From IMG/VR virus record IMGVR_UViG_3300032088_000039, positions 1-33,374 of that record: a DNA stretch of 33,374 nt; one strand, written 5' to 3'. The notes below the pieces were generated by a model, which was given only the letters and a program-made list of their open reading frames with translations, was not told the DNA's origin and did not search any database. Origin of the DNA: a virus. Taxonomy: Duplodnaviria > Caudoviricetes. The position numbers and the translations under genes were made by a program. Shown here piece after piece: positions 11,847 to 33,374 of this stretch. Position 1 is the first letter of the stretch, and each line of letters begins with the position of its first letter.

Positions 11847-13280
11847 ATGACACTGTTTGATGGCAAGATCATCACTGCGACTTACACAAGTAATGTGTAC
11901 GACGTAATCGAAATCCTATATTATGGCGAAGGCGGAGCGACGTCTTACATAATCGAAAACAATCCCTTACATCCTGATTTTAAAACCTTAGTCGAAAATG
12001 GCTGGGATGCTGACGCTATTCAAAAAGCTACTGAAGATAAAAAAAGAAAAGAGGCAAAGGCATTTAACGAAATGCTTGAACCACACATCCAGGCTCGTAT
12101 TGCTGAGCGTATTGGCTTGATCGATAAAGAATTAAAAAATAAACATATTCAATCTCAAGAGGAAATACAAAACCTAAGGCTGCAGCAAAAATCTGTAGAA
12201 ATTGAGCAGCGGTTTGCTGAGTTGCGCGAGCGTGAAGCCGAGATTCATAGGATTGCTGATGAGCGCCATGAGGAGCTGACACAGCGCGAAGCCGATATGC
12301 AGTTGTCTGCTGAAGAGCGTTTAGAAGAATTTAATAAGCGTGAAATGCAGATCAATAGCGAATATGCGAAGATCGATAGCAGTTATAAAGACCTCGATAG
12401 CAGTTATAAGGACCTCGATACCAGTTATAAAAACCTCGATAAAGATTATGAGAAACTCGATAAAGATTATGAGAAAATTGAAGCGGCGCACAAGGATCTT
12501 GACAACGCGCACAAGGATCTTGACAATAGGCAAACTGAATTACAAATGACGTCTGAAGAGCGTTTAGAAGAATTTAATAAACGTGAAGCTGAGATTCATA
12601 GGATTGCTGATGAGCGTCATGTAGAAGTTGCGCAACGTGAGAAAGATCTTGATCTAACGGCTGAAGAGCGTTTAGAAGAATTTAATAAGCGTGAAGCCGA
12701 GATTCATAGGATTGCTGATGAGCGTCATGTAGAAGTTTCACAACGTGAGAAAGATCTTGATCTAACGGCTGAAGAGAGATATGCCGCGTTTGAAGAGCGC
12801 GAAAAATTAATTCAATTAACTATAGAATCACGCCATGAAGAAATCGATATGCGTGAAGAAAGACATCGAGAAGAACAAGATAAGCGCATGGCTGAAATAA
12901 AAGATCATGAGCATCGTGTGTCGGCCGAGCTTGAACAGCGGTTAGAATTGCGCAGGAGTGAGATTGAAAGAGATGCTTTAGCAAAGGGCGCAAAGATCTT
13001 AGAGCAAAAACAAAAAATGGTTGGCAAGCTTGATAAATCCCTAGACGATCTGTCATTACAAAATTTGCAATTAGATAAGCAAATAAAACTGCAATTGTTT
13101 GATTACATTAGCGAACATGCCCAAGATAAAAACACGTTATTTGAATTTAAATTGTGGGCAATGGAAGACAATGATGTTAAATCAAGTCCGATCGAAGTAC
13201 GGAAAAAAATACGCAAATGTAATAACCTGTGGGTAGGTCTTAGCGCGCTTGCAGACGTGAAAACATCTAATGTATTATGA
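11847..13280 (+). CDS. Long coiled-coil protein with internal tandem repeats
   Basis: AAGGA SD upstream. E/R/K-rich 477-aa ORF with 36-aa and 7-aa repeats between small globular N- and C-terminal regions. Confidence 0.75.
   Translation: MTLFDGKIITATYTSNVYDVIEILYYGEGGATSYIIENNPLHPDFKTLVENGWDADAIQKATEDKKRKEAKAFNEMLEPHIQARIAERIGLIDKELKNKHIQSQEEIQNLRLQQKSVEIEQRFAELREREAEIHRIADERHEELTQREADMQLSAEERLEEFNKREMQINSEYAKIDSSYKDLDSSYKDLDTSYKNLDKDYEKLDKDYEKIEAAHKDLDNAHKDLDNRQTELQMTSEERLEEFNKREAEIHRIADERHVEVAQREKDLDLTAEERLEEFNKREAEIHRIADERHVEVSQREKDLDLTAEERYAAFEEREKLIQLTIESRHEEIDMREERHREEQDKRMAEIKDHEHRVSAELEQRLELRRSEIERDALAKGAKILEQKQKMVGKLDKSLDDLSLQNLQLDKQIKLQLFDYISEHAQDKNTLFEFKLWAMEDNDVKSSPIEVRKKIRKCNNLWVGLSALADVKTSNVL
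12371..12530 (+). repeat. In-frame 21-bp (heptad) tandem repeat
   Basis: ctcgatagcagttataa(a/g)gac-type units encode IDSSYKD LDSSYKD LDTSYKN LDKDYEK LDKDYEK IEAAHKD LDNAHKD LDN. Confidence 0.85.
12553..12776 (+). repeat. In-frame 108-bp tandem duplication (36 aa)
   Basis: ctgaagagcgtttagaagaatttaataa.. starts at 12553 and 12661, and ctgaagag recurs at 12769. A more diverged copy lies at about 12202-12344. Confidence 0.9.
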
Positions 13281-14388
13281 CTTTAGTAAGCCTTTTAATT
13301 TATTCTTAGACACTACTACGTTTTGCAATGTTTCATGTCCGCAGTGTCATAGAACAGACCCGAACGGTCTTGGCAAAATAGGTTGGTTGCCATTGGTGAG
13401 TTGGTCCTATAAAGACGTTCTAAAGATGCTGCCGCCAGAAGAATTAAAGCTAATTAATCGCACTAAGCTATGCGGTACATGGGGCGATCCTATGATGACC
13501 AAAGACATAGGAAAGATATTACCGTACTTATGCGATAATACAATTGGCGATGTGAGTGTAGATACTAACGGCTCATTAAGATCTGATGATTTTTGGTGGG
13601 AGCTTGGTATTGAATGTGGATCAAAGCTACGAGTGGTTTTTGATGTAGACGGCACTACCCAAGAGATGCATCATAAGTACAGGCAAAAATCAGATTTAGC
13701 GACAGTGTTATCTAATATGGAAACATTTGCTGCAGCAGGTGGAATAGCACAATCACAAACTATTGTGTTTAACCATAATCATCCGTACAAGCAGGACATT
13801 GCAAATTTATGTAAAGAGCATGGCTCACAGCACCACGAATTTGTAGTATCAGATAGATTTGAATCTGTTGATGCATCACGATCGTTATACGAAGTAACAC
13901 CGTTTAAATTTATTGATATAAACGGCAATGAGGATGAATTGATTCGTGCGCCGAGTAACAAGCAACCGCCGGCGTTCCAGGCTGTCAAAGGTAAAATGCG
14001 GCTTGAGAAACGCTCTGAAGAAATTGCATGTGAGTGGGGTATGAAACAAGAAGTTGTTATAAATCCTGATGGTCAAGTTTTTCCGTGTTGTTTTTTGGCA
14101 AACGGCATATATCCACACACATACGGCGAATTTAAAGACAGGAAAGCTGCAGCTGCAGTTTATGACGTATCAGATACAGGTGGAGTGTATCACCCGATTA
14201 TGCAAGAGTATATAGCACGGAAAGATGATTTTAATGTTAATCTCAGGCCGCTTAACGAGATATTGCACGATAAGTGGTATCAAATAACGTTGTTGGAATC
14301 TATTAAATCGGCAACTCCAATAAAACAATGTGTGTGGCACTGCAGCACTCAGGTGCGCAAGATTCATCAGGAAAGAACAGATGCCTAA
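13270..14388 (+). CDS. Radical SAM enzyme with C-terminal Twitch/SPASM-like Cys cluster
   Basis: CxxxCxxC motif (CNVSCPQC), GTWGDPMM, DTNGS, FDVDG, and a C-terminal C..VINPDGQVFPCC..CVWHC auxiliary-cluster pattern. Confidence 0.9.
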   Translation: MYYDFSKPFNLFLDTTTFCNVSCPQCHRTDPNGLGKIGWLPLVSWSYKDVLKMLPPEELKLINRTKLCGTWGDPMMTKDIGKILPYLCDNTIGDVSVDTNGSLRSDDFWWELGIECGSKLRVVFDVDGTTQEMHHKYRQKSDLATVLSNMETFAAAGGIAQSQTIVFNHNHPYKQDIANLCKEHGSQHHEFVVSDRFESVDASRSLYEVTPFKFIDINGNEDELIRAPSNKQPPAFQAVKGKMRLEKRSEEIACEWGMKQEVVINPDGQVFPCCFLANGIYPHTYGEFKDRKAAAAVYDVSDTGGVYHPIMQEYIARKDDFNVNLRPLNEILHDKWYQITLLESIKSATPIKQCVWHCSTQVRKIHQERTDA

Positions 14389-15001
14389 TATAATATTTGT
14401 TAAGCATGGTGAAAAATATACGGCTGCACACGTAAATAAAATATATAATCAGCTTCTTACATATTATCCTAGTGCAAAATATTATTGTTACACCGATGAT
14501 CCAGCCGGCATACAAGAGCATATACACATTATCAATATTTTAGACAGGCCTACTGTAAGAGGTGTTTGGAATAAGCTAGCACTATTCGCGCCTCATATGT
14601 CTATGCATGGTTATCCACTTAACGGCCGGTGCATTTTCTTTGATTTAGATATGGATGTTAAACACGATCCTTCTCAATTTTTAAATGTAAATCCAGGTTT
14701 AACGTTATGCAGCGATTACTGGAAACGAGATAATCCAAGATACCAGATTAAACATGCATATAATGTCACGGTCAATAGCTCTATTATGGCGTGGGTTGCC
14801 GGCGAACACGTTGACATATGGCAGAAATTTTTGACAAATACTGATTATTATATGCGTAAGTACAAGGGCATAGATAGATTCATAATACATGAGAATTTTA
14901 CGGTGAACACATTTAACGACGGCATTGTGTCTTCTGTTGCAAATCCGTATAGTGGTGGTGCTGCAATTGATATGTACAATGGAATAGAATATGTCGTATA
15001 A
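14381..15001 (+). CDS. Glycosyltransferase (GT-A fold, DxD)
   Basis: Likely start is ATG 14381 (MPNIIFVKHGEKY), overlapping the radical SAM stop, rather than 14330. Motifs KHGEKY, CYTDD, WNKLALF, IFFDLD, NSSIMAW and YKGIDRFI fit a small phage/bacterial GT family. Confidence 0.72.
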   Translation: MPNIIFVKHGEKYTAAHVNKIYNQLLTYYPSAKYYCYTDDPAGIQEHIHIINILDRPTVRGVWNKLALFAPHMSMHGYPLNGRCIFFDLDMDVKHDPSQFLNVNPGLTLCSDYWKRDNPRYQIKHAYNVTVNSSIMAWVAGEHVDIWQKFLTNTDYYMRKYKGIDRFIIHENFTVNTFNDGIVSSVANPYSGGAAIDMYNGIEYVV

Positions 15002-15656
15002 AGATAATCTATATAAGAACGCTTTACAGGCCGTCGAACAAATATACAAAAAATCTATGACTGATATGGATATTGATTTGTATCGTAGCCTTGATATAAT
15101 CCAGTCTGTTAGTGATAACCAAATAAAAAATAAAGAGTGGTGTGCCGATGCTATTGAACCATATTTAAAAGATATTGAATCTAAAAGAAGTAAAGTCCAT
15201 GTGTTGATAATGGGCAGTTGGTACGGGCTGTTAAGTCAAATTCTATTTCATCGCACAGCTGAACATGTCATTTTTGATAATTGTGATGTAGATCCTGAGT
15301 CAGAAGAAATAGGAAATAAGCTGTCCAGGTGTGTAGGCCATAATCAGCAGAAGCGCATTAGATTTCGAGGCGCAGAAGCATTTGAATATTTTGTAGAAGA
15401 TCCTAGCAAATACCACATGATTATTAATACAAGCTGCGAACACATGGATGCTGGTGATTTAGGTATGATACCATACATGAAGTCAGACGACACGATCATG
15501 TGCATGCAAGGCAATAATTATCACTCGGTAACAAGTCACATAAATACGCACAATAGCCTTGATGAGTTTACTGCTAGTCTGGGATTACGTGAAGTACTAT
15601 GGGCCGACACTTTAGAACAAGAAAAATATGATAGGTATATGGTGATAGGTAAATGA
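14991..15656 (+). CDS. Class I SAM-dependent methyltransferase
   Basis: VLIMGSWYG (motif I variant), CDVDP acidic motif II, IINTSCEHM, MQGNNY and RYMVIG. Overlaps both neighbours. Confidence 0.75.
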   Translation: MSYKDNLYKNALQAVEQIYKKSMTDMDIDLYRSLDIIQSVSDNQIKNKEWCADAIEPYLKDIESKRSKVHVLIMGSWYGLLSQILFHRTAEHVIFDNCDVDPESEEIGNKLSRCVGHNQQKRIRFRGAEAFEYFVEDPSKYHMIINTSCEHMDAGDLGMIPYMKSDDTIMCMQGNNYHSVTSHINTHNSLDEFTASLGLREVLWADTLEQEKYDRYMVIGK

Positions 15657-17371
15657 AAAGAGTAATTTATACACTATATCAAAACACCACAAAGAGTGGT
15701 GACATTGTAGCACCAGGCGATTGGGAAAACCACAATGAATATTTTGATAGGCTTTTGCAGTGTAAAAAAGATTATGCTAAAATATGTGGAGCTGATTTTA
15801 AATTTTATGAAAATACAGTTGAAGAGTGGGATACAAGCGAAGTTGTAGTAAGCAGCCAATTTGTAAAAATCAATTTATATAAATTACATCTATTTGAAGA
15901 GCTAGCAAAAGAATACGACGAAGTGTTATATCTTGATCTTGATGTTATCATCAATACCGAGGTTAATATATTTGATACATTTGATTTGAACAAGGGTTTA
16001 GTTTTTAGAATAAAAAACGATGAAATCGTGACAAAAGACATAAGCCAAACAATGAGCTTGCATGATGTTGGTATGCGCAACCCTACAGTAAAATATCATA
16101 TCACTAAAGAACTTCTTGGAAGCGATAGCGATCCTAATGTTATTAATACAGGAATTTTGCTTGGTGATAGCAAGCACATAGGCATGCTAAAATTTAGCGA
16201 GCGGCTTCCTGAAATATCGATGCGGATAGAGAAGGCCGTAGATTTTTATCACTATATTAAAATTGCATACACTCCAAACAACGAGGCTATTTTTTCTTAT
16301 CTTATTGAAGATCATAATATACCGTATCAGACTATTGGTCATGAGTGGCATGATATCCGCAATATGGAATTTGTGTACGAACCCTTTGGTAAATTTGTCC
16401 ATATGATAAACAAAAACTTTTATTTGTTTTATAAGGATAAAACACAAGTTATATTTTCAATTCATATGGATATACCTGATAATAAACTCGATCAACCTGG
16501 AAAGTATCCGGGCGATAATATCACAAAGGCTGTTCGCACTAAAAATGCTATGAATCAATATTATAACGCACTATATAAAAACAAGGCAGACTATGCTGCA
16601 GCTATTGGCGTAGATTTTTGTATGGTAGGTTATGACGAAGCATTTGAGAAATTTGCTGAACAATATCCATTGCTCACTATATACGACATTATAAACTTGT
16701 ATAAAATACATTTGCTTGATGTGTTTGCTGAGAAATACGATCAAGTATTATATCTTGATTTTGATGTTGTGTGCATGTCAAATGATAGTTTTTTCGACCA
16801 CAATAATTGTGACACTCATGTTTGTTGCATGTTTGATAACTTTAAAGAGCGCGCTGCAGATGAATTTAAAAAACGTAACATAGAAGATTGGTGCCACGAT
16901 CACCGATCACCGTTTACTAAATATTGGAACGCTCATGCGTTATCTATGGAATACGATGCAGAGCCAACTGATAGCGTGTTCAACACTGGCATAGTAGGAG
17001 CATCAAAGAAATCGTTGTCAAAACTCCGGTTTTTTGAAGACATGCCTGATATTATAGATACAATGACTGAGCTGAAACAAGATGACTCGATGTATCCAGG
17101 ACCTGTTGTTGAGCAATTTGGATATGATAACGAGACAATTTTTGGTTTTAAATCAGCTATGAACAGCACACCTATAGGATATCTAGGATCTCGATGGCAT
17201 GCAGTATCAAGGGCAAATCCACTATTATATTCTGCTGGTAGAAATGACGCTGACGTTGCTAGAGCTCAATCACAATTTGATGCGTTCATAAAAGATAAGA
17301 AACCTGTATTTGTTCACATGATTTCAAAGCAATTTGAGTTGGTGTTTAAGGATTCTACCCTCTCAACATAG
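15653..17371 (+). CDS. Tandem two-domain GT-A glycosyltransferase
   Basis: ATGA overlap with the methyltransferase. Two homologous halves: INLYKLHL..VLYLDLDV..INTGI..NEAIF..FVHMINKNF and INLYKIHL..VLYLDFDV..FNTGI..NETIF..FVHMISKQF (GT8/GT34-like DxD and NxG motifs). Confidence 0.8.
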   Translation: MKRVIYTLYQNTTKSGDIVAPGDWENHNEYFDRLLQCKKDYAKICGADFKFYENTVEEWDTSEVVVSSQFVKINLYKLHLFEELAKEYDEVLYLDLDVIINTEVNIFDTFDLNKGLVFRIKNDEIVTKDISQTMSLHDVGMRNPTVKYHITKELLGSDSDPNVINTGILLGDSKHIGMLKFSERLPEISMRIEKAVDFYHYIKIAYTPNNEAIFSYLIEDHNIPYQTIGHEWHDIRNMEFVYEPFGKFVHMINKNFYLFYKDKTQVIFSIHMDIPDNKLDQPGKYPGDNITKAVRTKNAMNQYYNALYKNKADYAAAIGVDFCMVGYDEAFEKFAEQYPLLTIYDIINLYKIHLLDVFAEKYDQVLYLDFDVVCMSNDSFFDHNNCDTHVCCMFDNFKERAADEFKKRNIEDWCHDHRSPFTKYWNAHALSMEYDAEPTDSVFNTGIVGASKKSLSKLRFFEDMPDIIDTMTELKQDDSMYPGPVVEQFGYDNETIFGFKSAMNSTPIGYLGSRWHAVSRANPLLYSAGRNDADVARAQSQFDAFIKDKKPVFVHMISKQFELVFKDSTLST

Positions 17372-17380
17372 TGACTCTTT

Positions 17381-17410
17381 ATTATAACACGATTAGTGAG
17401 GTTTGTAAAC
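17381..17410 (-). promoter_or_regulatory. sigma70 / T4-early-type promoter on the minus strand
   Basis: Reverse complement reads GTTTACA-aacctcactaatcgtgt-TATAAT: -35 TTTACA (17409-17404), 17-nt spacer, extended -10 TGn and perfect TATAAT (17386-17381). Confidence 0.75.
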
Positions 17411-17416
17411 AACAAA

Positions 17417-17895: not shown

Positions 17896-18240
17896 ATGGC
17901 GCAATATGAAGAATTAAGTATAGACAAAGGTACCGATGTCACAGTACAGCTTGAGCTCGAAGATACAAGCGGTAATCCAAAAAATCTGACGAATTATACA
18001 GTTGCAGGCAAAGTAAAGCGCAACTATAATTCGTCGACGTCTACACCATTTACAGCCGAGATTAAAGCTCCTGCCACAGGCGGGGTAGTAAATCTCAGCC
18101 TAACAAATGCGCAAACAAATACATTTAAAGCCGGACGCTACGTATACGATGTTGAGATATCTTTTGTCGACAGTGATTCACAAACTGTTGTCGAACGAAT
18201 CCTTGAAGGTCAAATTGAAGTCACCCCGTCAGTGACATAA
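17896..18240 (+). CDS. Small fibre-associated virion protein (BppU-N-like beta sandwich)
   Basis: IDKGTD..NLTNYTVAGKVKRNYNS..GVVNLSLTNAQT..AGRYVYDVEI..RILEGQIEVTPSVT, a family commonly preceding fibre genes in marine T4-like phages. Confidence 0.7.
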   Translation: MAQYEELSIDKGTDVTVQLELEDTSGNPKNLTNYTVAGKVKRNYNSSTSTPFTAEIKAPATGGVVNLSLTNAQTNTFKAGRYVYDVEISFVDSDSQTVVERILEGQIEVTPSVT

Positions 18241-18255: not shown

Positions 18256-21200
18256 ATGAAGGTTGTTGTTGGTACAAACACGATAGTCAAAAAAGTTACC
18301 GTTGGCACGCCGCTTAGAGTAGGTAACGCAGCGAATGGTAGTCTAACTGGATTAGATGATGTCAATGGTATAGTAAATCTTGGCCATGATACAATATTAC
18401 AGTACGACTCGGCTGCCGGTAAATTTAAACATGTATCGCCTGCAGCGCTTGCATCTGACGGCTTAACTGTTTCAGCCTCTGGTATGGGCTCACTGTCAGA
18501 AACTGGCGGTACGCTTACATATGTCGGACCGAGTGTCGACAGTGTTCGAGCGCTTTTTAATGTCACATACGATAGTAGTGCATTAGGAACACTTGTCAAA
18601 ACTGGTGGTACAACTCATTTAACTGGCCCTACGCCTAATCAAATCCGTGGCTTGTTTACAGCAGGCAATGACTTACAATATAATGCAGCAACAGGTGAAT
18701 TCTCTGTTACGGTTCCAAGTGGTTCGTCAGGGTTTGATAGTAACTTCAATGCGAAGTCTACAACAAATCTGCCGGAAGGCTCTAACCTATATTACACCGA
18801 CTCGCGTGGCCGAGCGGCAGTATCTGTTGTCGACGCCGGCGGATTTGGTTCGCTTGCGTATAATGCTGTTACCGGTGTTCTTACATACAATGGGCCAAGT
18901 GTTTCCGATATAAGATCTGGAATTAATGTTGGTGCGAATTTAGCATATGATTCTGCGACAGGCAAAATTACATTTACAGGTTCACTTGGCGGAACATTCG
19001 ATTCTGACAATGCGCGTAAGTCAATTAGTGTTGTTGATGCTGGTGGACAAGGTTCACTTGCATACAATAATGGCACTGGCCAAATCACTTATACTGGTGC
19101 GACCGATTCATCGACTCGTGGATTATTCTCTGCTACCGGTGATCTAACATATGATAACGGACAATTTGGATTTACCCAAAGAACTGATGCACAGGTTCGT
19201 GGATTACTAAATGCCGGTTCAGGAATAACGTATGACAATACGACTGGCCTAATTAGTGCAAGTGTTGGCACACACTATGCTGACTCAGACGCTCGTCATG
19301 CAGTAACAGTACAGGATCTTGGCGGACAAGGTTCGCTTTCATACAACAATAACACAGGTCAAATATCATACCAAGGAGCAAGCGACTCTGATACGCGTGG
19401 TTTGATTAGTGCGACTGGTGATATTACATATAATCAAAATACCGGTGTTATTAATTTTACACAAAAAACTGATGCACAAATACGAGGGTTGTTTAATGTC
19501 AGTGGGGACCTTGGTTACGATACTGGTACTGGTGTATTTTCTGTTGATCTCGGATCGGTGGATGTAACCGATTCTGCAGTTACTCGAGCGTTACTTTCTG
19601 TTACCAACGACGATGGTGATTACGGCTCACTTGCATACGATGCTGGCACAGGACAATTTGCCTTTACAAAGGTTACTGACTCTGATATAAGAGGATCTTT
19701 ATCTGCAGCCGGCGATTTGGCATACAATCAGACAACAGGCCAATTCAGTTATTCTAAACGAACAGATGCTGACATCCGCAGCTTGTTATCTGCATCTGGT
19801 GATCTAGCTTATAATTCTGGTACTGGTCAATTCAGTATCACAACAGGTGCACATTATCAAGACTCAAATGCCCGACATGCCATTAGCTTTAGGCACACTG
19901 CTGACTCAATTGCTAATGTCAATGAATATGGAACAGTAACGTACAACCAAGCAACTGGTGACGTCGTAATATACGGCACACGTGATTCTGATATTCGTGG
20001 ATCGATGAGCTTTGTTGATGCAGGTGGATTAGGCTCACTTGCATACAATGAAAATGAAGGTCGAGTTACATACACAGGACCAAGTAATACTGATATTGCC
20101 GGAACACTATCGGCTACGACCGATCCTCTCTCAATGGGTAAACTTACTCTTGATTCAAGCAAAGGACAGTTTACACTTAAGTTAGAAGACGATAGTGTCA
20201 GAGCTCTATTCAGTGTTACTTCAGATAACGAAGGCGGCTCGTCTCTAACATATGATTCTTCTACTGGTCAATTTGTATTCAGTGGCCCAAGCACCCTCGA
20301 TCTGCGTTCAAAGATTAGTGTTGTTGATGCTGGTGGTGACGGTTCTCTTACATATTTTGAATCGGGCGGTGTGTTTACATACACTGGCCCTAGTCCGGCC
20401 GAAGCGCGCGCTCACTTTACTGCTGGCCTTGGACTAGACTATAATCAGTCTACGGGCACATTTAGATTAGACAGTTCTGCTAACATTGTTACAGGCGGCA
20501 TTGTTACAAATGTTCTTGAAGTAAAAGATTCTGCACGGATCGATACTATTACATCGCGCAATAGTGGTGCTAATACATTAACCCTTACTGGCAGTAGTGT
20601 ACATCTTAAGACCACTGATGCCAGAATATTACTTGATACAGAGTTTTTACACACAACTGATAATAGAATTATTTTTAATGTCGACGATAGTGACATTACT
20701 AAAATTGATAATGGTGGTTTTGTTATTGGTGCAGGATCTAATGTTCAATTCTTTGTGTATAAATCTGCGACAAATCAATTTTTAAGTAGCGCTGGTTTAA
20801 GCGTACCAGACGGCGATATTACTGGTAAGACAATTGACTCGTTAAACAAACGAATCGATGAATTGCCTGATTCGGCCCAAACAAAAGCAATTTTTACGTC
20901 AGGTCCTGGTTTATCCTACGATAATACTAACGGCATATATCGAATTATATCTTCTGGCGTAACAGCTGGAACTTATGGTGATGCGACAAATGTTTCTCAA
21001 CTTACCGTAGATTCACTTGGTATTGTTACGGGTGCTGTCAACGTTCCTATATCAACAGTAACAAATAACACCTTTGATTCTGCAACTGGTCAGTTAACAA
21101 TTACTACGGCAACAGATAGTTTCAACGCATCTATCACATTAGACCCATTTACTACAAATACTCTGGCCGAAGGTCCTAATAATCTATATTATACTCGCAG

Positions 21201-22353
21201 CAGATTTGATAGTGCATTAGATGATAGTACGTCTGAAACAAGAATACGTCAATATTTTAGAACAGATCTTGCATCTGATTCATCTCGCCAACAAGTAAGA
21301 AAATATATTAACGTTGGCCCAAGCCTGTCATATGATTCGGCGACAGGTAAGCTAACAACTAATCAGGCGCTTGACTCAAATAGCAATGTGCGCTTCCAGA
21401 ATATTGTTCAGACCGGACAGTTACAAGGTCCGGCAGAGTTTATAATCGATCCGGCAGCTATTGGTGATAATACTGGTACTGTTAAGATTCTTGGTAACCT
21501 TCAAGTCGAAGGTGTACAAACGATTATTAATTCTACTACGGTTTCTGTCAATGACAAAAACATTGTATTGGGTGACTCAGCCGCCGATTCATCTGCGCTA
21601 CATGGAGCAGGAATTACGCTAGGCGGAACAAATATTGTAGACAAACCATCGTTTACATATTCTCATGCTGGACAAAGATTTGTATTTAATCGTAACATTC
21701 AGGCTGACAGCTTTTATGGTGACGTAACAGGCAATGTGACTGGTGATGTTACAGGTAACGTGACTGGTGATGTTGTAGGTGATCTCACTGGAAACGTCAC
21801 AGGTCAAGTATCTGATATATCAAATCATACCACAACAGATTTAGCCGAAGGCAACAATAAATACTTTACGATACCCCGAGCTCGCAATGCAATACAAGCC
21901 GTTGATGCTGGCGGCGACGGTTCGTTCATATATGATTCTTCGACCGGGACAATGACCTACACAGGTCCTAGTCCGACTGAAGTTCGAGCACACGTATCTT
22001 TAGTTGATAATGGTGGTGATGGCGAAATGTCGTATGACGCCGCAACCGGTATTATATCATATACAGGACCGTCAGAAGCTGAATGGTATCAACACTTTGT
22101 AGATAACGCAGATAGCCTTGGCGATATGGTTTGGGATTCAAATTATGGCACAAAGGGTGGACTGCGGTTACACGAGCGTCATATACTTGGTTTACAAGAA
22201 ACAGGCGTAGATTCGTTTGTTGCAGCCCAAGAATTTATAATGTACTATAGTGGAACAGCAGGCAGTTTACGAAAATTAAATCTTAACACATTTAGCTCTC
22301 TGGTTGGCGGAGGCGGAGGCGGCTCAAAATTGTTTGGTTTTATAAATTTATAG
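18256..22353 (+). CDS. Long tail fibre-like protein with degenerate beta repeats
   Basis: AAGGA SD. 1365 aa, G/S/T/D-rich, with repeats SVVDAGGxGSLAYNxxTGxxTYTG and RxxxSAxGDLxY, three TxxLxEGxxNxY motifs, a GNLQVEG..TIINSTTVSVNDKNIVL motif and a G(D/N)VT tetrapeptide run. Confidence 0.8.
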   Translation: MKVVVGTNTIVKKVTVGTPLRVGNAANGSLTGLDDVNGIVNLGHDTILQYDSAAGKFKHVSPAALASDGLTVSASGMGSLSETGGTLTYVGPSVDSVRALFNVTYDSSALGTLVKTGGTTHLTGPTPNQIRGLFTAGNDLQYNAATGEFSVTVPSGSSGFDSNFNAKSTTNLPEGSNLYYTDSRGRAAVSVVDAGGFGSLAYNAVTGVLTYNGPSVSDIRSGINVGANLAYDSATGKITFTGSLGGTFDSDNARKSISVVDAGGQGSLAYNNGTGQITYTGATDSSTRGLFSATGDLTYDNGQFGFTQRTDAQVRGLLNAGSGITYDNTTGLISASVGTHYADSDARHAVTVQDLGGQGSLSYNNNTGQISYQGASDSDTRGLISATGDITYNQNTGVINFTQKTDAQIRGLFNVSGDLGYDTGTGVFSVDLGSVDVTDSAVTRALLSVTNDDGDYGSLAYDAGTGQFAFTKVTDSDIRGSLSAAGDLAYNQTTGQFSYSKRTDADIRSLLSASGDLAYNSGTGQFSITTGAHYQDSNARHAISFRHTADSIANVNEYGTVTYNQATGDVVIYGTRDSDIRGSMSFVDAGGLGSLAYNENEGRVTYTGPSNTDIAGTLSATTDPLSMGKLTLDSSKGQFTLKLEDDSVRALFSVTSDNEGGSSLTYDSSTGQFVFSGPSTLDLRSKISVVDAGGDGSLTYFESGGVFTYTGPSPAEARAHFTAGLGLDYNQSTGTFRLDSSANIVTGGIVTNVLEVKDSARIDTITSRNSGANTLTLTGSSVHLKTTDARILLDTEFLHTTDNRIIFNVDDSDITKIDNGGFVIGAGSNVQFFVYKSATNQFLSSAGLSVPDGDITGKTIDSLNKRIDELPDSAQTKAIFTSGPGLSYDNTNGIYRIISSGVTAGTYGDATNVSQLTVDSLGIVTGAVNVPISTVTNNTFDSATGQLTITTATDSFNASITLDPFTTNTLAEGPNNLYYTRSRFDSALDDSTSETRIRQYFRTDLASDSSRQQVRKYINVGPSLSYDSATGKLTTNQALDSNSNVRFQNIVQTGQLQGPAEFIIDPAAIGDNTGTVKILGNLQVEGVQTIINSTTVSVNDKNIVLGDSAADSSALHGAGITLGGTNIVDKPSFTYSHAGQRFVFNRNIQADSFYGDVTGNVTGDVTGNVTGDVVGDLTGNVTGQVSDISNHTTTDLAEGNNKYFTIPRARNAIQAVDAGGDGSFIYDSSTGTMTYTGPSPTEVRAHVSLVDNGGDGEMSYDAATGIISYTGPSEAEWYQHFVDNADSLGDMVWDSNYGTKGGLRLHERHILGLQETGVDSFVAAQEFIMYYSGTAGSLRKLNLNTFSSLVGGGGGGSKLFGFINL
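21718..21810 (+). repeat. 12-bp in-frame repeat encoding G(D/N)VT tetrapeptides
   Basis: GDVTGNVTGDVTGNVTGDVVGDLTGNVTGQV; degenerate at DNA level. Confidence 0.8.
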
Positions 22354-22405: not shown

Positions 22406-22738
22406 ATGGCCGCAACATTTGGAAATGGACTAGCTACAGTCGGAAGTACAGAGACAACTTTGTACACCGCGCCAGCTGGTTTGTCAGGATTACATTTGGT
22501 CGTAGGCTTTATTGCTACAAACATATTTGGCTCTGCCTTGCCTATTACTGTTAAGCTAGTGCGTGGATCAGATACAATATATTTGGCGCATGATCGTAGA
22601 GTTTTGCCAAACGACACCATTGACATTTTGATGGGAACTAAAATAACGCTCATTGATGGCGATCTTATCAAAGTCAAAGCACCACTAGACAATGCCTTCA
22701 GCGTATTTCTAACTGTAACTGAGGAAGTGCTAACATGA
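22406..22738 (+). CDS. Small putative virion protein
   Basis: 110 aa with TTLYTAPAG..ATNI..VKL..L..GDLIKV pattern typical of small beta-sandwich phage structural proteins. Downstream of a late promoter. Confidence 0.65.
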   Translation: MAATFGNGLATVGSTETTLYTAPAGLSGLHLVVGFIATNIFGSALPITVKLVRGSDTIYLAHDRRVLPNDTIDILMGTKITLIDGDLIKVKAPLDNAFSVFLTVTEEVLT

Positions 22739-23043
22739 GCGGAGAATATGGAAGAGATAATGTTGGCGGCATTTACACAGGCAACGCTTTTCACGATAAG
22801 ACATTTTATGGGTTTAAAGTAGATAGCATCGGAAATTTTAATTGTACAATAATTAGAAGCAATGATAGCGACGTTATAAACCTACCACAAACAACAGCGC
22901 CGTCGGGGCTTGACTCAGCGGCGGATTCACTTAATGCAAAATTTGCACACCCTGATGACTACAAGGTACATTTTTGGTCAATGGACGCAATTACATTTAG
23001 ATTTAATAACTCGACCGGCCACCTTGAAATGGTCAGGTATTAA
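22735..23043 (+). CDS. Hypothetical phage protein
   Basis: ATGA overlap with the upstream gene and GAGGA SD. TFYGFKVD..G and FRFN..TGHLEM motifs. Confidence 0.6.
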   Translation: MSGEYGRDNVGGIYTGNAFHDKTFYGFKVDSIGNFNCTIIRSNDSDVINLPQTTAPSGLDSAADSLNAKFAHPDDYKVHFWSMDAITFRFNNSTGHLEMVRY

Positions 23044-23064: not shown

Positions 23065-26000
23065 ATGGCAACAATAATCGACTTAGGTAAAATCAGATTT
23101 GACTTTAAAGGCGTTTACGCAGGTGGTATTACCTACGAAGTAAACGACGTTGTCAAGTATGGTGGTAACTTGTACGTGTACACGTACGGCATTGCAACAT
23201 CAGGAAACGTTCCTACCAATACGACATATTGGGATCTAATGATGGAAGGCTTCAACTTTGAAGGCATCTTCGATACAGGAACAACGTATAACATCGGTGA
23301 TGCGTTTTCGCATGGTGGTATTGTGTATATCGTTACAGCAAATACTGTTGTCGGCCAAACACCGCCTAACGCATCTTATTACTCGACATTTGTCGATGGT
23401 CTTCAGTTTGAAGGTACATGGGATGTAGGTACGGCGTACCAAAAAGCAGACCTTGTAACTTATGGCGGTAAATCTTATATTGCGCTTCAAGATACAACCG
23501 GCGATATTCCTTCGTCGTCTGGTACGCAGTGGGACATCTTTGCTGACGGCATTGGCATACTTGGGACTTGGCAAGCAGCTACGGCTTATATCAAAAATGA
23601 TGTTGTCACTTATGGTGGCTCAACATATCGCGCGCTGCAGGATGTAGCGCAGAACATCAAGCCTTCGGCAGGTTCACCCAATTGGGGAACATTTGTCACT
23701 GGCTTTGACCTTAAAGATTCATTTGACTCAGCAACAGCATATGTAAAAGACGACATTGTTCTTTTCGGTGCAAACTTATTTAGAGCTAAAGGCGATGTGA
23801 CAGGTGTTCATCCAATGAATACAGTCAGCTGGGCACCTTTCCTAAGTGGCTTCTCTTATGTCGGTGCTTATGACGCAGCACGCAAATATTTTATTGGTGA
23901 AATCGTTTTACACGGCGGCAATTTATATCAGGCCAAACTACCTTCAACTGGATCTGAACCAAGTGGTACAGCTGCGGCCTGGGAAATTATTGCTACAGGA
24001 TTTACTGCAAAAGGTGATTGGGCAACTGGTACAGTGTATGCACCTGGTGACATTGTCAAGCATGGTGGATCTGCTTATGTTGTTGAAACATATCATACCG
24101 CTGCAGCGGCCTTTGCAACAGATTTAGCAGCTAACCGTGTAGCAGAATTTGTTTCTGGCGTTAAAAACCGAGGAACATGGTCAGCTGGTGCAGATTATAT
24201 TGTCAACGATATGGTTATCAGTGGCAACTCTTCTTACATCGCGCTCACTACTCATACATCAACAGCCAACTTTAGCACAGACTTAGGTAACGGTAACTGG
24301 CAGGTGTTTGCTGCTGGCGGTGGCGGTGTGCTTCCGACTGTTGGTGGTTCTGACGTTGGTAAATCACTTGTCGTTAAAGGCGATGGCACAGGTTACGAGC
24401 TCGATTATGTCGATAACTCACCCAACACATATTACGTCGCACACGGCGGTGTCGATGCAACAGATGCTGGTAAATCGGCTCAACGGCCATTTGCTACAAT
24501 ACAATATTGTATGACACAGATTGCTGCAGAAAAAACTGCAGACTCATCGGCGCAGGTGTTTATTAAAGACGGCGTGTATAGAGAATCATTACCTATCACC
24601 GTGCCTTCGGATACAACAGTATTTGGTGATGGTCAGCGTAATACTACGATTGAACCGGCCGCAGGTGACTCAAACAAAACCATGTTCTTTGTGAACGATG
24701 GTGTTCTAATGAAAGAACTTAAGCTTCAGGGCTTAACTGGATTTGCACTCGATTCTGCTAACGGTGAGCCTGACAATATTGAAAAGGCAACGATCGGTGG
24801 TGTCTTCCTTCGCCTTGATCCTACTGCGGTTATTAATAAATCACCGTATATTAAAGAATGTTCTGCCTTTTCTACAGGCGGTGTTGGTGTTCTTATTGAT
24901 GGCGGATTGAACTCTAATCCGGCCAATAACGGTTCAATGGTCTTTCACACATTTACTCAAATCCACTCAGGTGGCGTTGGTTTCTGGGTGCGCCGGAACG
25001 GTAAAGCTGAAATTGTATCATGCTTTACATACTATTGCGACTTTGGTTATGCCACATCTGGCGGCGGTCAAATCCGTGCGTTGAACGGCAATAACTCTTA
25101 TGGTACATACGGAACAGTATCGTCGGGCAATGATTCAAGCGAAGTAACTCTTAACGGTTCTGTTCGTGGTTATAATCTTGATTATCAAGATGGTTCGCTT
25201 AAAAATGGTGAGTTTACAAAGGGCGGTATCGTTGCTGCAGTAAACAGAACATTTGCTCTTAACACAATCGCTAAAACGAGCCCAGCTCGTGCTACCACAG
25301 TAGCTCCACATGGGATGACAGATGGTGCTCTTGTTTCCTTTAACACACTCTTGCCAGCATCTTGGTCGAGCTCAGCTAATGCGACAAGCTATTATGCTGA
25401 TGTTCAGGACTCATACTCGTTTGATCTCTATACAAACACGGCTCTCTCAAATCCGGCGAGTGGAGAAGCATGGGGTGGACGGCATGTAACAAACACGTCT
25501 ATAACAGATATTACTCGTTCAAACCCAATGACAACAACAGTTGCCTCACACACACTCGATTCATACGACCTTATTCGTATCCAAGGTGTCGGCGGCATGA
25601 CGCAAGTTAATGACCAATACTTCCTTGTTATGGATCATAGTTCGTCTATTATTAAATTTAAAGAAGCTGAAAATAACTATATCGCGGTTGCGACAAATGG
25701 CAGCAACGCGGCTGTAATTACCGGTGTAGCTGGTGGAGTTACTCATGCTGCTGCAGTTGAACCTACTTTGTCACTTTACAAAGGTTCTCGTTACTACTTT
25801 GATATTGATTCGTCAAACGGCAATGGCTTCTATCTCACGACAAGTGATCCAGCGTCAGTCACGCCTTCACTATCTTATACAGGCGAATATACAACCGGCG
25901 TTACTGGTTCGCGCGCCGTTAAAGGTGGAAGGCTTGCTATTACAATCGATAGCTCGGCTCCGGCTACTTTGTATTATGCCAACTCTGGTAACGTGCTAGC

Positions 26001-27045
26001 GGCTGGTACAATTAATATTGCCGCTCCAGGCGATGTAGATGCTACATCATATTCTGTATATACGTCTGGCGGCCAATTGCGTAAAACAGATTCAGGCGAT
26101 GCTCTTATATCAGGCAATATGTCTAGAATTGGTTCCAAAGCGCTGATTGTAGATCACCAGCCCGGCGCCAACAAACTTATCATTGATAACATTATTGGCA
26201 CTGGTTTTCAAGATGGCGACTCTATTAACGATTCAGGTAATGCTTCTAATGTATATGCAAAGCTTTCGGTATCTGATGCTGCGCACGACCAATTTGGTTA
26301 CACAATGGCGTTTACCGGCCTAACTGGCGCTAGACCAAAAACTGGTGGCTCTGTACAGTTCATAGCTAACCTTGGTGATTCTGGCTACGACTCGGTAGGA
26401 TCTTACGTGATTCAAACTGTTGGCGATTATGATTCATCAACAGGCAATGCACTTCTTGTATTTGCTCAACAAAAGGCAGATACACGTAAAGCACCTAAAG
26501 GACAGCAGGTAAAAATTCGTTATAAATACTCACAAGCTAGACTTACTGGTCATGACTTCCTGAATATTGGTTTTGGTAACAAAACTCAGACCAATTATCC
26601 TGGCACACCTTCACTCGCTGCAGCGCAGGGTAATGAGGTTGTTGAACGAGATACTGGCCGTGTGTACTTTGTGTCAACTGACCAATCTGGTAATTTTAGA
26701 GTAGGTAACTACTTCCGGATCGATCAGGCGACAGGCCGAGCAACATTGGACGCCTCAGCGTTTGACCTTTCTGGTCTAACATCTCTGAGACTTGGTTCGA
26801 TTGGTGCTCAGTTAGGTGAAGCAATTAACGAATTCTCGGCCGATGGTTCATTGGCAGGTAATTCAAACTTGGCTGTTCCTACAGAACAGGCCGTAAAAAC
26901 ATATGTTGATGCTCAACTTGAAATTGCATCTACAAAATCATTGCCAAAAACCGCTAAAGGTGGCGACTTAGCAACAGAACAATATATTGGATTTAGTATC
27001 CACGACTTAACAAAATTAACCGCAAAAGGCGTCGACAAGGCGTAA
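23065..27045 (+). CDS. Multi-domain tail fibre/spike: N-terminal aromatic repeats, pectin-lyase-like beta-helix, conserved fibre C-terminus
   Basis: GGAG SD. About nine F.G.W....Y..(N/G)D.V..GG..Y.A repeats (aa ~1-420), then YYVAHGGVD..GKSAQRPFATIQ..IKDGVYRESLPITVP..VFGDG beta-helix entry, SPYIKECS, FTQIHSGGVG and AEIVSCFTYYC. C-terminal RLTGHDFLNIG, GRVYFVSTDQSGNFRVG and AVPTEQAVKTYVD. Confidence 0.8.
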   Translation: MATIIDLGKIRFDFKGVYAGGITYEVNDVVKYGGNLYVYTYGIATSGNVPTNTTYWDLMMEGFNFEGIFDTGTTYNIGDAFSHGGIVYIVTANTVVGQTPPNASYYSTFVDGLQFEGTWDVGTAYQKADLVTYGGKSYIALQDTTGDIPSSSGTQWDIFADGIGILGTWQAATAYIKNDVVTYGGSTYRALQDVAQNIKPSAGSPNWGTFVTGFDLKDSFDSATAYVKDDIVLFGANLFRAKGDVTGVHPMNTVSWAPFLSGFSYVGAYDAARKYFIGEIVLHGGNLYQAKLPSTGSEPSGTAAAWEIIATGFTAKGDWATGTVYAPGDIVKHGGSAYVVETYHTAAAAFATDLAANRVAEFVSGVKNRGTWSAGADYIVNDMVISGNSSYIALTTHTSTANFSTDLGNGNWQVFAAGGGGVLPTVGGSDVGKSLVVKGDGTGYELDYVDNSPNTYYVAHGGVDATDAGKSAQRPFATIQYCMTQIAAEKTADSSAQVFIKDGVYRESLPITVPSDTTVFGDGQRNTTIEPAAGDSNKTMFFVNDGVLMKELKLQGLTGFALDSANGEPDNIEKATIGGVFLRLDPTAVINKSPYIKECSAFSTGGVGVLIDGGLNSNPANNGSMVFHTFTQIHSGGVGFWVRRNGKAEIVSCFTYYCDFGYATSGGGQIRALNGNNSYGTYGTVSSGNDSSEVTLNGSVRGYNLDYQDGSLKNGEFTKGGIVAAVNRTFALNTIAKTSPARATTVAPHGMTDGALVSFNTLLPASWSSSANATSYYADVQDSYSFDLYTNTALSNPASGEAWGGRHVTNTSITDITRSNPMTTTVASHTLDSYDLIRIQGVGGMTQVNDQYFLVMDHSSSIIKFKEAENNYIAVATNGSNAAVITGVAGGVTHAAAVEPTLSLYKGSRYYFDIDSSNGNGFYLTTSDPASVTPSLSYTGEYTTGVTGSRAVKGGRLAITIDSSAPATLYYANSGNVLAAGTINIAAPGDVDATSYSVYTSGGQLRKTDSGDALISGNMSRIGSKALIVDHQPGANKLIIDNIIGTGFQDGDSINDSGNASNVYAKLSVSDAAHDQFGYTMAFTGLTGARPKTGGSVQFIANLGDSGYDSVGSYVIQTVGDYDSSTGNALLVFAQQKADTRKAPKGQQVKIRYKYSQARLTGHDFLNIGFGNKTQTNYPGTPSLAAAQGNEVVERDTGRVYFVSTDQSGNFRVGNYFRIDQATGRATLDASAFDLSGLTSLRLGSIGAQLGEAINEFSADGSLAGNSNLAVPTEQAVKTYVDAQLEIASTKSLPKTAKGGDLATEQYIGFSIHDLTKLTAKGVDKA

Positions 27046-27492: not shown

Positions 27493-27521
27493 ATAGTAAG
27501 AACTAAAATACGGGTATTGAT

Positions 27522-28433: not shown

Positions 28434-28442
28434 GAATTAAAA

Positions 28443-29462: not shown

Positions 29463-29467
29463 AAATA

Positions 29468-30529: not shown

Positions 30530-30539
30530 GAAATATGTA

Positions 30540-31547
30540 ATGGCAAAAAATCTCGCAAGTATAGTAAAAAACGTCAAGCCCGGTGGCGTAACTGGTACAA
30601 TCGACCAAACACAGAAAAAAGTTCACGTATGGGAAAACGTAGGCGAACAGGGCATCATGCAAGGCATCCACGGGCAGGGCGAATACAGTTGCGGCTATTG
30701 CCGAAGTTGCTATATCTACTGTGTTCCAGGCGTTGCGCGTCCTGGTGCAGGCTCCTGTGACCGCAATAGCGCACCGAACAGAGTTAAGTTTGAAATCTGG
30801 GGCGCGGGCGGATATGGCGCTCAGCCGTGGAATTGCGGTATAGCTGTTCCTTCTGGTGCCGGTGCATATGCGTATAAAACAATATGTAATTCGGATGTCG
30901 TGGCAAACAACTGTTATCTAATTAGACTTGGTTACACGTGGTGTTGTCTGCCTAACGCTGGTTCAGGCGATAATGTGACTCCAAACACTGAATATCGCGA
31001 GCTCAATTGCACAACTCACATTACAGGCAACGGCTTAACAAACTTCTGTGCCGAACCTGGAAGAGGCACAACAATACGTTGCTGTAACTTTAACGCTACA
31101 TGTTTTGATAGTGACAATGCTAGAATTTGGACACTTGACAGTCATGACCAAGGTGGCCTTGGCCCACAAGCAGCGTATTATGGAGCAGATGGCGGTTCTA
31201 AAGGCAAACTTGGTTATATCACCAAAAAGCCAGGAGCACCGGCTGACAATCCACTTTCATATATGCAACATGTCCCATATGCTGGCGGGAAAATTGATAA
31301 ATGTGGCGGACACTTTATCTACAGCAATGTTAGATATGGACATGGCGGAGATTTGAATCCGGGTCAGGATTACACAGAACAATGGAAATGCGTTGACGCT
31401 CTTTACCATGGTGTTGCGAATCATTCACCTTCATATTACACGGCTGGTCAAGGTTGGCCTGGCGGACATACATGTGGCGGTGCAAGCCCGTGTTCTGGTA
31501 ACACTCCGGGTCGCGTAAAAATCACTGCTTGGTATGAGGAGGAATAG
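30540..31547 (+). CDS. Cys/Gly-rich paralogue 4 (type A)
   Basis: FEIWGAGG, SGAGAYAYK, GLTNFCAE, YYGADGG, PYAGG, GRVKITAW; about 19 Cys by manual count. Confidence 0.75.
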   Translation: MAKNLASIVKNVKPGGVTGTIDQTQKKVHVWENVGEQGIMQGIHGQGEYSCGYCRSCYIYCVPGVARPGAGSCDRNSAPNRVKFEIWGAGGYGAQPWNCGIAVPSGAGAYAYKTICNSDVVANNCYLIRLGYTWCCLPNAGSGDNVTPNTEYRELNCTTHITGNGLTNFCAEPGRGTTIRCCNFNATCFDSDNARIWTLDSHDQGGLGPQAAYYGADGGSKGKLGYITKKPGAPADNPLSYMQHVPYAGGKIDKCGGHFIYSNVRYGHGGDLNPGQDYTEQWKCVDALYHGVANHSPSYYTAGQGWPGGHTCGGASPCSGNTPGRVKITAWYEEE

Positions 31548-31553
31548 TGTGAG

Positions 31554-31561
31554 TATAAATA
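31554..31561 (+). promoter_or_regulatory. T4-type late promoter TATAAATA
   Basis: Exact motif between paralogues 4 and 5, followed by AGGAG SD and ATG 31586. Confidence 0.85.
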
Positions 31562-31585
31562 ACCTAAGTTATAGGAGAATTATTC

Positions 31586-32668
31586 ATGGCTAAAAATTTA
31601 TCACAGTTTATGCCAGCCGTCGTAGCTCCTGAGCAAGTTCCAACCGGATTTGAAGCATTCTTACTACCAGACAAGGCTCAAGGCGATTTTGACGCCAATG
31701 GGCGAGATCAAAATTATAGTGGCCACTGTTTTGTGTGGCGTATAAACCGTAACATGTGTGACATCCGCGTAAAAATTACTGGTGGAGGCCAAGGCGGTGC
31801 AGCCTATTGTTGCTGTCAGCAAGGTCAAACTGGCCTGCCTGGCGTAATGCAATTGTACAGTGTTTGTAATTCTGTCAATTCGAGCGGAAGCGTACCTCCA
31901 GGTTCAACACCAACTGGACCGCTTGGCGAAGATGTAGAAGTCAACGGTGTAAAAGGTCAGCAGCGTCTTATGTTTAGGATTGGTATGGGCGGATGTTGCT
32001 GTTCTACGTGTATCGGCCATGAGAGTTGTTTTTCTATGTTGTGCCATTATTGTACTGGCACAGGCATCACAGAAGATCTGAACACCGGGTTTATTTGCAT
32101 TTGTGCTGGATCGTTTCAATGCGGTGGCAGGACGTCTTGCCAGTGGGGTTACAACAACGACTGCAACAGAGCCGCGATAACAAATCAAGCTGATGCGTTG
32201 AATACCGCTGTTTGCAGTGGTGCCAATTGCGGAACATGCTGTGCCCGTATTGATGGCAAATGTGGATGTACAAAATCTCCAATTTGTGCTGGTTATGACT
32301 GTGCGGAATGTATAGGTTGTGCTCATCCAGGATATAATATGTATAAAGGGCAGTGCTGCTCTGATGGAAGATGCGGTGTATTACAAATGTCGGCAGGTCA
32401 AAATACTGCTTCACCATTTGAATACGGATCACATTATTTAGGCATTGGCCATGGGTGTCAGCAAGAACATAATGCAAATTCTATGTGGTGCCAACTTTGG
32501 AAAAGAATCGGTATTGCTGGCAATAACACTATCAATATAAGGCAGGCAGGCCGAAGTAATGCTGTTCCATCAGGCTGTGCAGGCGGTTGTGCCGGTGGTT
32601 CACAAGATCAGGCTGGATGGGGTTATATACGCTGGAAAGATCCAGGATACGACGGGAAGAAATTATAA
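31586..32668 (+). CDS. Cys/Gly-rich paralogue 5 (type B)
   Basis: MAKNLSQFMP, GGGQGGAAYCCCQQGQTGLPG, FRIGMGGCCC; about 35 Cys in 360 aa by manual count. Confidence 0.72.
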   Translation: MAKNLSQFMPAVVAPEQVPTGFEAFLLPDKAQGDFDANGRDQNYSGHCFVWRINRNMCDIRVKITGGGQGGAAYCCCQQGQTGLPGVMQLYSVCNSVNSSGSVPPGSTPTGPLGEDVEVNGVKGQQRLMFRIGMGGCCCSTCIGHESCFSMLCHYCTGTGITEDLNTGFICICAGSFQCGGRTSCQWGYNNDCNRAAITNQADALNTAVCSGANCGTCCARIDGKCGCTKSPICAGYDCAECIGCAHPGYNMYKGQCCSDGRCGVLQMSAGQNTASPFEYGSHYLGIGHGCQQEHNANSMWCQLWKRIGIAGNNTINIRQAGRSNAVPSGCAGGCAGGSQDQAGWGYIRWKDPGYDGKKL

Positions 32669-33374
32669 TGGCAAAAACACTAAAAAGCTTTTTCCCACAC
32701 CAGATAGAACCTGGTTCTCGGGATATGAAAGACACTGAAGGTTCATCAATTATTTTCCAATTGTGGGGCGGTGATTATACACAAAATGACCAGATACCTG
32801 GTTACTGTTATTGTACTGGTGGCGCATGTTATAATCCTACTGGATATGATTCTGATATTCCACGTTATTATTGGACAGTGCCGGCAGGCATAACCAAAGC
32901 GACATTTGAAGCTTGGGGAATGGGCGGATACGGTGCCGGGGCTACTTGCTGTATGATGGGTGTTCCAGGAGGTTCTGGTGCCTACGCACTTAAAACTATA
33001 GACGTTGTCCCAGGTGATACATATACAATGTGTCTTGGCGATGTAATAGACAATGGTGCGCAGACTACATATATATCCAATTGCGCTAACACCATACAAA
33101 ACAGTGACCCAAGCAGTAATCCTGACCTTGTCAATCACGGAATACGAGGCGCAAAGGCATATGTCACAGGTAACGGTCTAACAAACTTTTGTGCCGAAGG
33201 TGGAAACCCTGGAGTTACACGGCCATATGCATATATAGGTTCAACTGCATGTCGGATGCCCGGTGGCGGTAATCAGGCGTTTCATTGCTGGGTACCTCTG
33301 ACAATGTGTGATATCACACGAAGATCCGTCGGCGATAGTGATAACGACAGATATCAAAGAGCCTGTTACTATGG
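32668..33374 (+). CDS. Cys/Gly-rich paralogue 6 (type A), 3'-truncated and absent from the ORF track
   Basis: TAATG overlap at 32666-32670. Manual translation is open to the window end: MAKTLKSFFPHQ..WTVPAGITKATFEAWGMGGYGAGATCCMMGVPGGSGAYALK..GLTNFCAEGGNPG..GDSDNDRYQRACYY. Confidence 0.8.
   Translation, partial: MAKTLKSFFPHQIEPGSRDMKDTEGSSIIFQLWGGDYTQNDQIPGYCYCTGGACYNPTGYDSDIPRYYWTVPAGITKATFEAWGMGGYGAGATCCMMGVPGGSGAYALKTIDVVPGDTYTMCLGDVIDNGAQTTYISNCANTIQNSDPSSNPDLVNHGIRGAKAYVTGNGLTNFCAEGGNPGVTRPYAYIGSTACRMPGGGNQAFHCWVPLTMCDITRRSVGDSDNDRYQRACYY

Follow-up and report, generated by a model that had tools for sequence, protein, structure and literature searches.

General protein O-glycosylation in the Bacteroidota uses the motif D-(S/T)-(L/I/V/T/A/S/M) (PMC12871550). 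Virion glycosylation has been described for the cluster F1 mycobacteriophages Che8 and Rita (Freeman et al. 2023; PMC11256854, PMC12619734). The staphylococcal enzymes SdgB and SdgA glycosylate Ser-Asp repeats, with DSD as the minimal peptide (PMC8561734), and Maf enzymes O-glycosylate protein Ser/Thr using CMP-sugars (PMC11339370). In pelagimyophages and cyanomyophages, the host recognition cluster forms a variable VrlC-gp14 island with fibres, GT8-type glycosyltransferases (GTs) and radical SAM cassettes (PMC7029224). The present analysis concerns the dipeptide Asp-Ser (DS) in the virion proteins of IMG/VR record IMGVR_UViG_3300032088_000039, a stretch of 33,374 nucleotides (33.4 kb; the window), which is the entire record and is rated 20% complete. 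Judged by its sequence, the source is an uncultured marine T4-like phage. The closest cultured relative by VrlC is phage C48C1 (35% match), and no cultured phage is near. An earlier note on the window had proposed that DS serines of the virion are glycosylated by an adjacent cassette of GTs, a methyltransferase (MTase) and a radical SAM enzyme. Our analyses suggest that DS is probably a modification tag, when all possible writers are taken together. There is about an even chance that the DS serines are glycosylated by a phage enzyme encoded outside the window, rather than by the adjacent cassette.

Expected DS counts were derived from 2000 composition-preserving shuffles per protein for all 26 proteins of the window. 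The virion proteins in question are as follows (DS observed against expected).

2..1756, plus strand: gp6, 5' end cut off; 0 against 3.1
3756..5132, plus strand: baseplate wedge gp8; 6 against 3.4 (p 0.10, not significant alone)
5145..10283, plus strand: VrlC-like/DUF4815 baseplate protein; 12 against 10.0, no enrichment; triplet DS[A/D] 7 against 1.5
17896..18240, plus strand: LtfC-like small protein upstream of the fibre; DS 2; 2.6x in the clade of DS-rich relatives
18256..22353, plus strand: 1365-aa tail fibre-like protein; strongest excess, 38 against 12.2 (3.1x, z 8.3); DS[A/D] 15 against 2.0
22735..23043, plus strand: 102-aa protein in the fibre-spike gap; 4 against 0.9 (p 0.006); homologues carry 1-4 DS
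23065..27045, plus strand: 1326-aa tail fibre/spike with CBM5/12-type repeats (phrog_9851); 16 against 7.5 (p 0.002)

The DS counts given for each protein in the earlier note all agreed with these tallies, and its suspicion that the VrlC-like count lay near expectation was correct. Its description of DS as pervasive is too strong for this window: apart from the fibre, the spike and the 102-aa protein, the 17 remaining putative structural proteins together have 38 DS against 29.5 expected. In the fibre, DS is the commonest dipeptide, the reversed SD occurs only 12 times, and DT is depleted (5 against 13.1). DS is absent from the radical SAM protein, the MTase and the single-domain GT, and the two-domain GT has 6 against 2.8 (p 0.056). 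The 38 DS sites of the fibre fall into 23-33 distinct contexts and the 16 of the spike into 15-16, and the non-repeat stretch 730-1160 of the fibre has 16 against 3.8. Repeat expansion as the sole cause is thus ruled out, as the earlier note had argued. An origin from a DNA motif (GANTC) was also ruled out, because the Ser codon class after Asp is the same as for other Ser residues.

The same bias is found in relatives of the fibre. In 109 of the 120 best listed homologues, some as distant as 27% identity, DS reaches 2.8-4.0x. Control fibres were obtained in a second search, which was seeded by a DS-poor fibre having the same repeats. This gave 45 non-redundant repeat-sharing fibres (from 233), which were assigned as 12 DS-rich, 27 DS-poor and 6 intermediate with the hairpin positions masked and the thresholds placed where the distribution of values left gaps. 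At the hairpin [YF][DN]xx[TS]G, the D:N ratio in DS-rich fibres is 81:19 before Ser and 32:40 before other residues (odds ratio 5.3); in DS-poor fibres it is 77:107 before Ser and 60:55 otherwise (odds ratio 0.66). The DS-poor fibres use Asn-Ser at the same hairpin, so this structural element can be built without DS. SD, DT, NS and ES are not enriched in the 12 DS-rich fibres and the clade contigs, and DT is at 0.39x in these fibres. Over 1045 clade DS sites, the residue at +1 is enriched for Ala (4.2x) and Asp (2.0x), and L/I/V are at 0.27-0.41x. DSD is the second commonest DS triplet in the clade. A separate fibre of more than 3300 aa with 80 DS was seen in the relative G057 (L134:2-10021); it includes a short-period repeat with DS in most units, and its fold context differs from that of the window fibre.

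These features were compared with the Bacteroidota sequon, to which the earlier note had linked the DS sites. In both cases Asp directly precedes Ser, one topological class of proteins is enriched, and Ala is accepted at +1. The Bacteroidota use both Ser and Thr, whereas DT is depleted here; L/I/V are disfavoured at +1 here, and Asp occupies this position in 15% of sites compared with under 1% there. In the window, +1 is A/I/L/V/M/T in 23 of 64 DS sites, against a background of 39%. The Bacteroidota system acts on exported proteins in the periplasm (PMC12871550); the targets here are virion proteins, which are put together in the cytoplasm. On the DT depletion and the Ala/Asp preference at +1, identity with that sequon was rejected, and the proposed link is not supported. 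A DS tag would still resemble that system in being read at Asp-Ser.

The DS sites could instead be a structural habit of the lineage, in which helix N-caps and Asx-turns of fibre blocks are amplified by repeats and no covalent modification occurs. In the fibre, numerous DS sites belong to helix starts of the form TDSxxR or hairpins of the form YDSxTG, and alignment A2 has several columns in which DS never varies. The sole DS-rich protein of C48C1 (OQ984149.1) is also a repeat, of 1568 aa (L163:16306-21009; 31 DS, 28 SD), with DS at helix-start-like positions. However, NS, DA and DD fill the same hairpins and helix starts in 27 other fibres. Thr also serves helix-cap and turn positions, yet DT is depleted. 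The distribution of DS over the other virion proteins, given next, is likewise not accounted for by such a habit, which is an unlikely explanation.

In whole contigs of the clade, DS is high in gp8, gp15, LtfC, the gp7-like protein, the gp14 tails, the sheath and the insert of the major head protein, and low in gp6, gp13, gp25, gp27 and gp48. The proteins were labelled outer or inner by what we take to be their positions, from T4 architecture. DS ranks highest of 302 dipeptides in the outer proteins, second lowest of 310 in the inner ones and mid-range in controls, with the inner/outer split behind these ranks having been drawn after the whole-contig data were seen. For replication, 160 fresh loci were retrieved by gp6; 80 had a window-like gp6 (23 non-redundant) and 79 a pelagiphage-like gp6 (30 non-redundant). 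DS counts (observed/expected), which are summed over homologues and hence not independent samples, were low for the inner proteins of the window-like loci: gp6 30/82.5 (0.36x), gp25 5/19.6 (0.25x), gp27 19/47.3, gp48 8/27.8 and gp53 12/18.8. They were high for the outer proteins: gp7-like 125/57.7, gp9-like 200/71.7 (2.8x) and gp8 136/58.1 (2.3x). The pelagiphage-like controls gave 121/133 for gp6 (0.91x), 13/18.2 for gp25, 280/225 for gp7-like, 34/38 for gp9-like and 41/32.4 for gp8. Reversed SD is at background in clade proteins, including those of the gp6-anchored loci. In 18 gp8 sequences, DS occurs at 34 columns and slides within short stretches; it is the most coupled of 151 dipeptides. 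One gp7-like protein in L467, which is Maf-negative (see below), has DS 20 against 8.8, an exception among the controls.

The excess thus falls in unrelated folds (gp8, the gp15 tail, LtfC, the sheath, the major head protein insert), and a structural habit leaves the clade-only avoidance in gp6, gp25, gp27 and gp48 unexplained. Gain on outer proteins, avoidance on inner proteins, a fixed residue order and the use of Ser only form the pattern that would be expected from an enzyme-read tag. The suggestion of the earlier note that DS sequons are under selection in the structural proteins is supported for exterior virion proteins, where the hairpin, two-sided and gp8-column data are consistent with a recognition tag more than with repeats or turns. 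Low-affinity binding sites for metals (Ca, Mg, Fe) or minerals on the particle surface would also suit the exterior location and the high rank of DSD. The calcium motif [DN]xDS[DN] fits only 34 of 1043 sites, though, and DSDG occurs 14 times, so a calcium-motif reading finds little support; the background level of SD and the avoidance in inner proteins are not explained by metal sites in general, which are highly improbable.

The window has the gene order gp6, gp7-like, gp9-like, gp8, VrlC-like and then a variable island with the cassette, the fibre, the spike and six Cys/Gly-rich paralogues. The cassette consists of four overlapping genes (13270-17371), and two further genes accompany it.

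10894..11832, plus strand: g312, 312-aa cassette companion; DS 0; three internal hairpin-helix repeats
11847..13280, plus strand: 477-aa protein; conserved N- and C-terminal domains flank a long repeat insertion; most constant partner of the cassette
13270..14388, plus strand: radical SAM/SPASM protein (Pfam) with CxxxCxxC; variable cassette member
14381..15001, plus strand: single-domain GT-A-like glycosyltransferase (phrog_1962) with DxD
14991..15656, plus strand: class I methyltransferase-like protein; weak profile match (E 0.003)
15653..17371, plus strand: two-domain GT8-like glycosyltransferase (Pfam GT8); halves 28% identical, DxD in both

The GT/MTase/radical SAM cassette of the earlier note is therefore real, with the MTase label resting on the weak match. 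By position and content it is a member of the host recognition cluster, being variable in 24 loci; the window stops short of the neck genes, among them gp14, which bounds such clusters downstream. The accessible text on that cluster proposes modification of the host O-chain, and mentions no DS bias or virion modification (PMC7029224). The model of the earlier note, in which the cassette writes a modified glycan on DS serines, draws on the DxD motifs in all three GT-A domains and on the position of the genes. Of 24 clade loci that span the whole VrlC-LtfC interval (several are near duplicates), 21 carry the cassette in some form in the stretch from VrlC to the fibres. The cassette could also still extend a glycan started by another enzyme. 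However, Pelagibacter phage Mosig has the cassette with DS 48 against 52 in its structural region, and G023 (221 kb, rated 100% complete) has it with DS 103 against 98 in its Gly/Thr/Ser-rich proteins. Conversely, G057 (220 kb, 100% complete) is DS-rich (278 against 153), and the two-domain GT, single GT, MTase, g312 and 477-aa family were absent from it by BLAST and profile searches. G060 has a DS-rich fibre with the cassette missing locally. L067, L068 and L086 have a VrlC-LtfC interval without the cassette, and the fibres of L068 and L086 are DS-rich. In quick trees with moderate support, the MTase and single GT of the window cluster with G023/G001-type cassettes, apart from those of its nearest relatives; the DS status is known for only three records of this type. 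The cassette members themselves vary: of the 24 clade loci, 6 have the radical SAM gene and 13 a two-domain-GT homologue. The constant partner g312 avoids DS (14 against 43.8 across 21 clade proteins). DS-rich fibres in phages lacking the cassette are an outcome that the earlier note had named as refuting its model. G057, G023, Mosig and the trees largely rule out the cassette as either necessary or sufficient for DS, and its role as the DS writer is very doubtful.

The cassette is likely a separate, exchangeable module of the host recognition cluster, with g312 and the 477-aa protein as partners, or one acting on the host envelope. The 477-aa family is present in all 21 cassette-bearing clade loci, and both are missing from the other 3. 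Among 43 loci retrieved by the two-domain GT, g312, the 477-aa family, the single GT and the MTase occur together in 27, and VrlC or fibre genes lie within 10 kb in only 1. In the search for viral contigs with the two-domain GT, a single-protein query found none and an alignment query succeeded. The GC content of the cassette is below that of its flanks. PDB sequence searches with alignments of the two-domain GT, the single GT and g312 gave nothing useful. The structural model of g312 is confident (predicted local distance difference test, pLDDT, 94), with no match in BFVD and, in the PDB, only weak likeness to MABP-type beta-prisms (Z 5-6). The 477-aa family is always next downstream. These features make g312 a candidate for binding a receptor or membrane, and the cassette may serve it. 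A mobile GT module beside fibres should not be presumed to act on its neighbours.

The 477-aa protein can be regarded as a member of a ~190-aa family that carries a ~300-aa repeat insertion. L506, from a 99% identical phage, is without ~108 bases of the repeat region of this gene, so the repeat length differs between near-identical genomes. A YbaN/DUF454 membrane protein gene (17396-17833) closes the cassette, as in the closest relatives L052, L054 and L055.

A candidate writer was found outside the window. When G057 was compared with other DS-rich and with DS-poor genomes, a 200-aa Maf-like protein was one of about a dozen families unmatched in the DS-poor set. Strong matches occur in 8 of 40 records, namely the DS-rich G035, G037, G043, G051, G057, G059 and G069, and C48C1. 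All 4 DS-rich records with a completeness of 77% or more are among these, as are 3 shorter DS-rich ones; no strong match, and one weak match (1e-6), was found in the 10 DS-poor records that are cultured or reach 71% completeness. A gp8 gene is present on 8 Maf-positive contigs (7 distinct; 16 searched), and in every one of them gp8 is DS-rich, with 6-10 DS against 2.2-3.9. Among 68 loci whose flanks are long enough, the gene lies next to a GT8-like gene in 65, and two GT25 genes are present in 66 and 58 of the 68; sulfotransferase and MTase genes are also frequent in the cluster. The Maf-like protein has no Pfam match at E up to 1 and none by NCBIfam or PDB sequence search. The best match of its structural model (pLDDT 89) is Maf 5MU5 (Z 10.9, root-mean-square deviation 3.8, 168 aligned residues, 10% identity). 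The model has the Maf_flag10/CstII fold, and an Atlas lead also pointed to PF01973. The likeness to Maf, CstI and CstII is one of fold; Mafs transfer directly onto Ser/Thr of a filament protein (PMC11339370), and the candidate, unlike them, is single-domain. The candidate enzyme was found in about 650 stored viral stretches. Its matches among genome contigs lie in metagenome-assembled genomes of several unrelated groups, and no single host is indicated.

On the favoured reading of a phage glycosylation system, the writer would recognise (hydrophobic)-D-S-(A/D/small) and act in the cytoplasm on subunits that are still free or are being assembled. DS sites would build up in exposed loops and fibre turns, and would be purged where a bulky adduct would hinder subunit contacts. 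With less assurance, the writer may be the 200-aa protein of Maf/sialyltransferase fold, grouped with the GT8-like and two GT25 genes. The outcome would be an acidic glycan coat giving shielding, stability or less sticking. It is possible, and we put it forward tentatively, that this abundant, uncultured clade has evolved its own O-glycosylation code. The Maf-like enzyme would place an acidic sugar on D-S-(A/D), to be extended by GT8/GT25, sulfo- and methyltransferases, and the structural proteome would have been rewritten, with hundreds of outer sites gained and interfaces purged.

DS could instead be read by a writer of another kind, such as a kinase, or by a host-encoded enzyme. The hairpin, two-sided and gp8-column data fit any Ser-directed writer, pyrophosphokinases share the Maf-like fold, and phosphorylation of marine phage structural proteins has been reported (PMC12014285). 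No kinase was evident, by eye and by Pfam for 12 proteins, among the G057 families common to DS-rich genomes, and the clade-restricted enzymes found are GT-like. A non-glycan or host-written tag is quite unlikely.

Several further observations weigh against glycosylation by the Maf-like enzyme or against a tag as such. The gp9-like protein of the window has DS 1 against 1.7, VrlC is flat in DS across the clade, and non-structural proteins are equally DS-depleted in the clade (0.80) and outside it (0.81). The fibre sites are frequently at helix starts and hairpin turns, as described above. The Maf-like fold is a near tie with SteA (Z 9.7), CstI (2P56; 9.5) and the pyrophosphokinase HPPK (9.0), PF01973 profile matches were found in 0 of 38 records, and known Mafs have no sequon (PMC11339370). 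On the gp8 tree, the DS excess and the Maf-like gene map to a single clade whose sister is C48C1, and their agreement therefore counts as one evolutionary event; other clade-specific gene families exist as well. C48C1 has the Maf-like gene, yet its gp8, gp6 and fibres are normal in DS. The gene is known from relatives only and lies outside this window. In the G037 sequence as assembled, a stop breaks the gene into two pieces (G037:C1:100464-101061). The Maf-like cluster could instead act on DNA or lipopolysaccharide (LPS), since the genomes also encode a thymidylate-synthase-like gene. In G057 (L131:8371-11481), thymidylate-synthase-like, cytidylyltransferase, APS-kinase-like and UDP-glucose dehydrogenase-like genes stand together; their annotation suggests DNA or sugar modification chemistry.

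Phage glycosylation of DS serines would have parallels in two known systems. As in Che8 and Rita, phage-encoded GTs are proposed to coat the particle with glycans, and such GTs are present (GT8 and phrog_1962 in the window; GT25 and GT8-like in relatives). Glycans were shown there at the C-termini of capsid and tail tube proteins, (PMC11256854, PMC12619734), whereas here many internal sites on fibres, baseplate periphery, neck and sheath are inferred from sequence only. A GT reading DSD on an adhesin has a precedent in SdgB. SdgB and SdgA have a GT-B fold and act on long SD repeats, in contrast to the dispersed DS(A/D) sites here (PMC8561734); no GT-B homologue turned up, with no search aimed at GT-B made. 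A virion DS system would count as a variant form of glycosylation of phage particles, which has so far been shown for mycobacteriophage capsids (PMC11256854, PMC12619734). In the literature searched, supplements and subscription papers aside, no report was found that marine phage virions are glycosylated or biased towards DS.

If DS is a tag, sequence data would suffice to recognise a sequon-directed coat on phage particles, and in a marine clade that is widespread. Some GTs of marine T4-like phages, which are currently ascribed to DNA or host LPS, would gain a testable role. Such a coat would matter for the persistence of virions in seawater in the face of proteases, grazing and adsorption. 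Glycoengineering would gain a small O-glycosyltransferase that works in the cytoplasm and needs a tag of only two to three residues. No cultured strongly DS-rich phage was found among 50,697 records with fibre, spike, VrlC and Maf-like queries. C48C1 is the only cultured carrier of the Maf-like gene and is sister to the DS clade, which makes it a possible bench model; no paper on this phage was found.

Two minor observations concern the window itself. An 87-kb contig (L505) has 99.99% identity to it across 21.7 kb. The six Cys/Gly-rich paralogues (~300-360 aa; 27522-33374) lie downstream of the spike, and four of them match phrog_4205; comparable runs of such paralogues are found downstream of the spike in L047, L055, L060 and L061.

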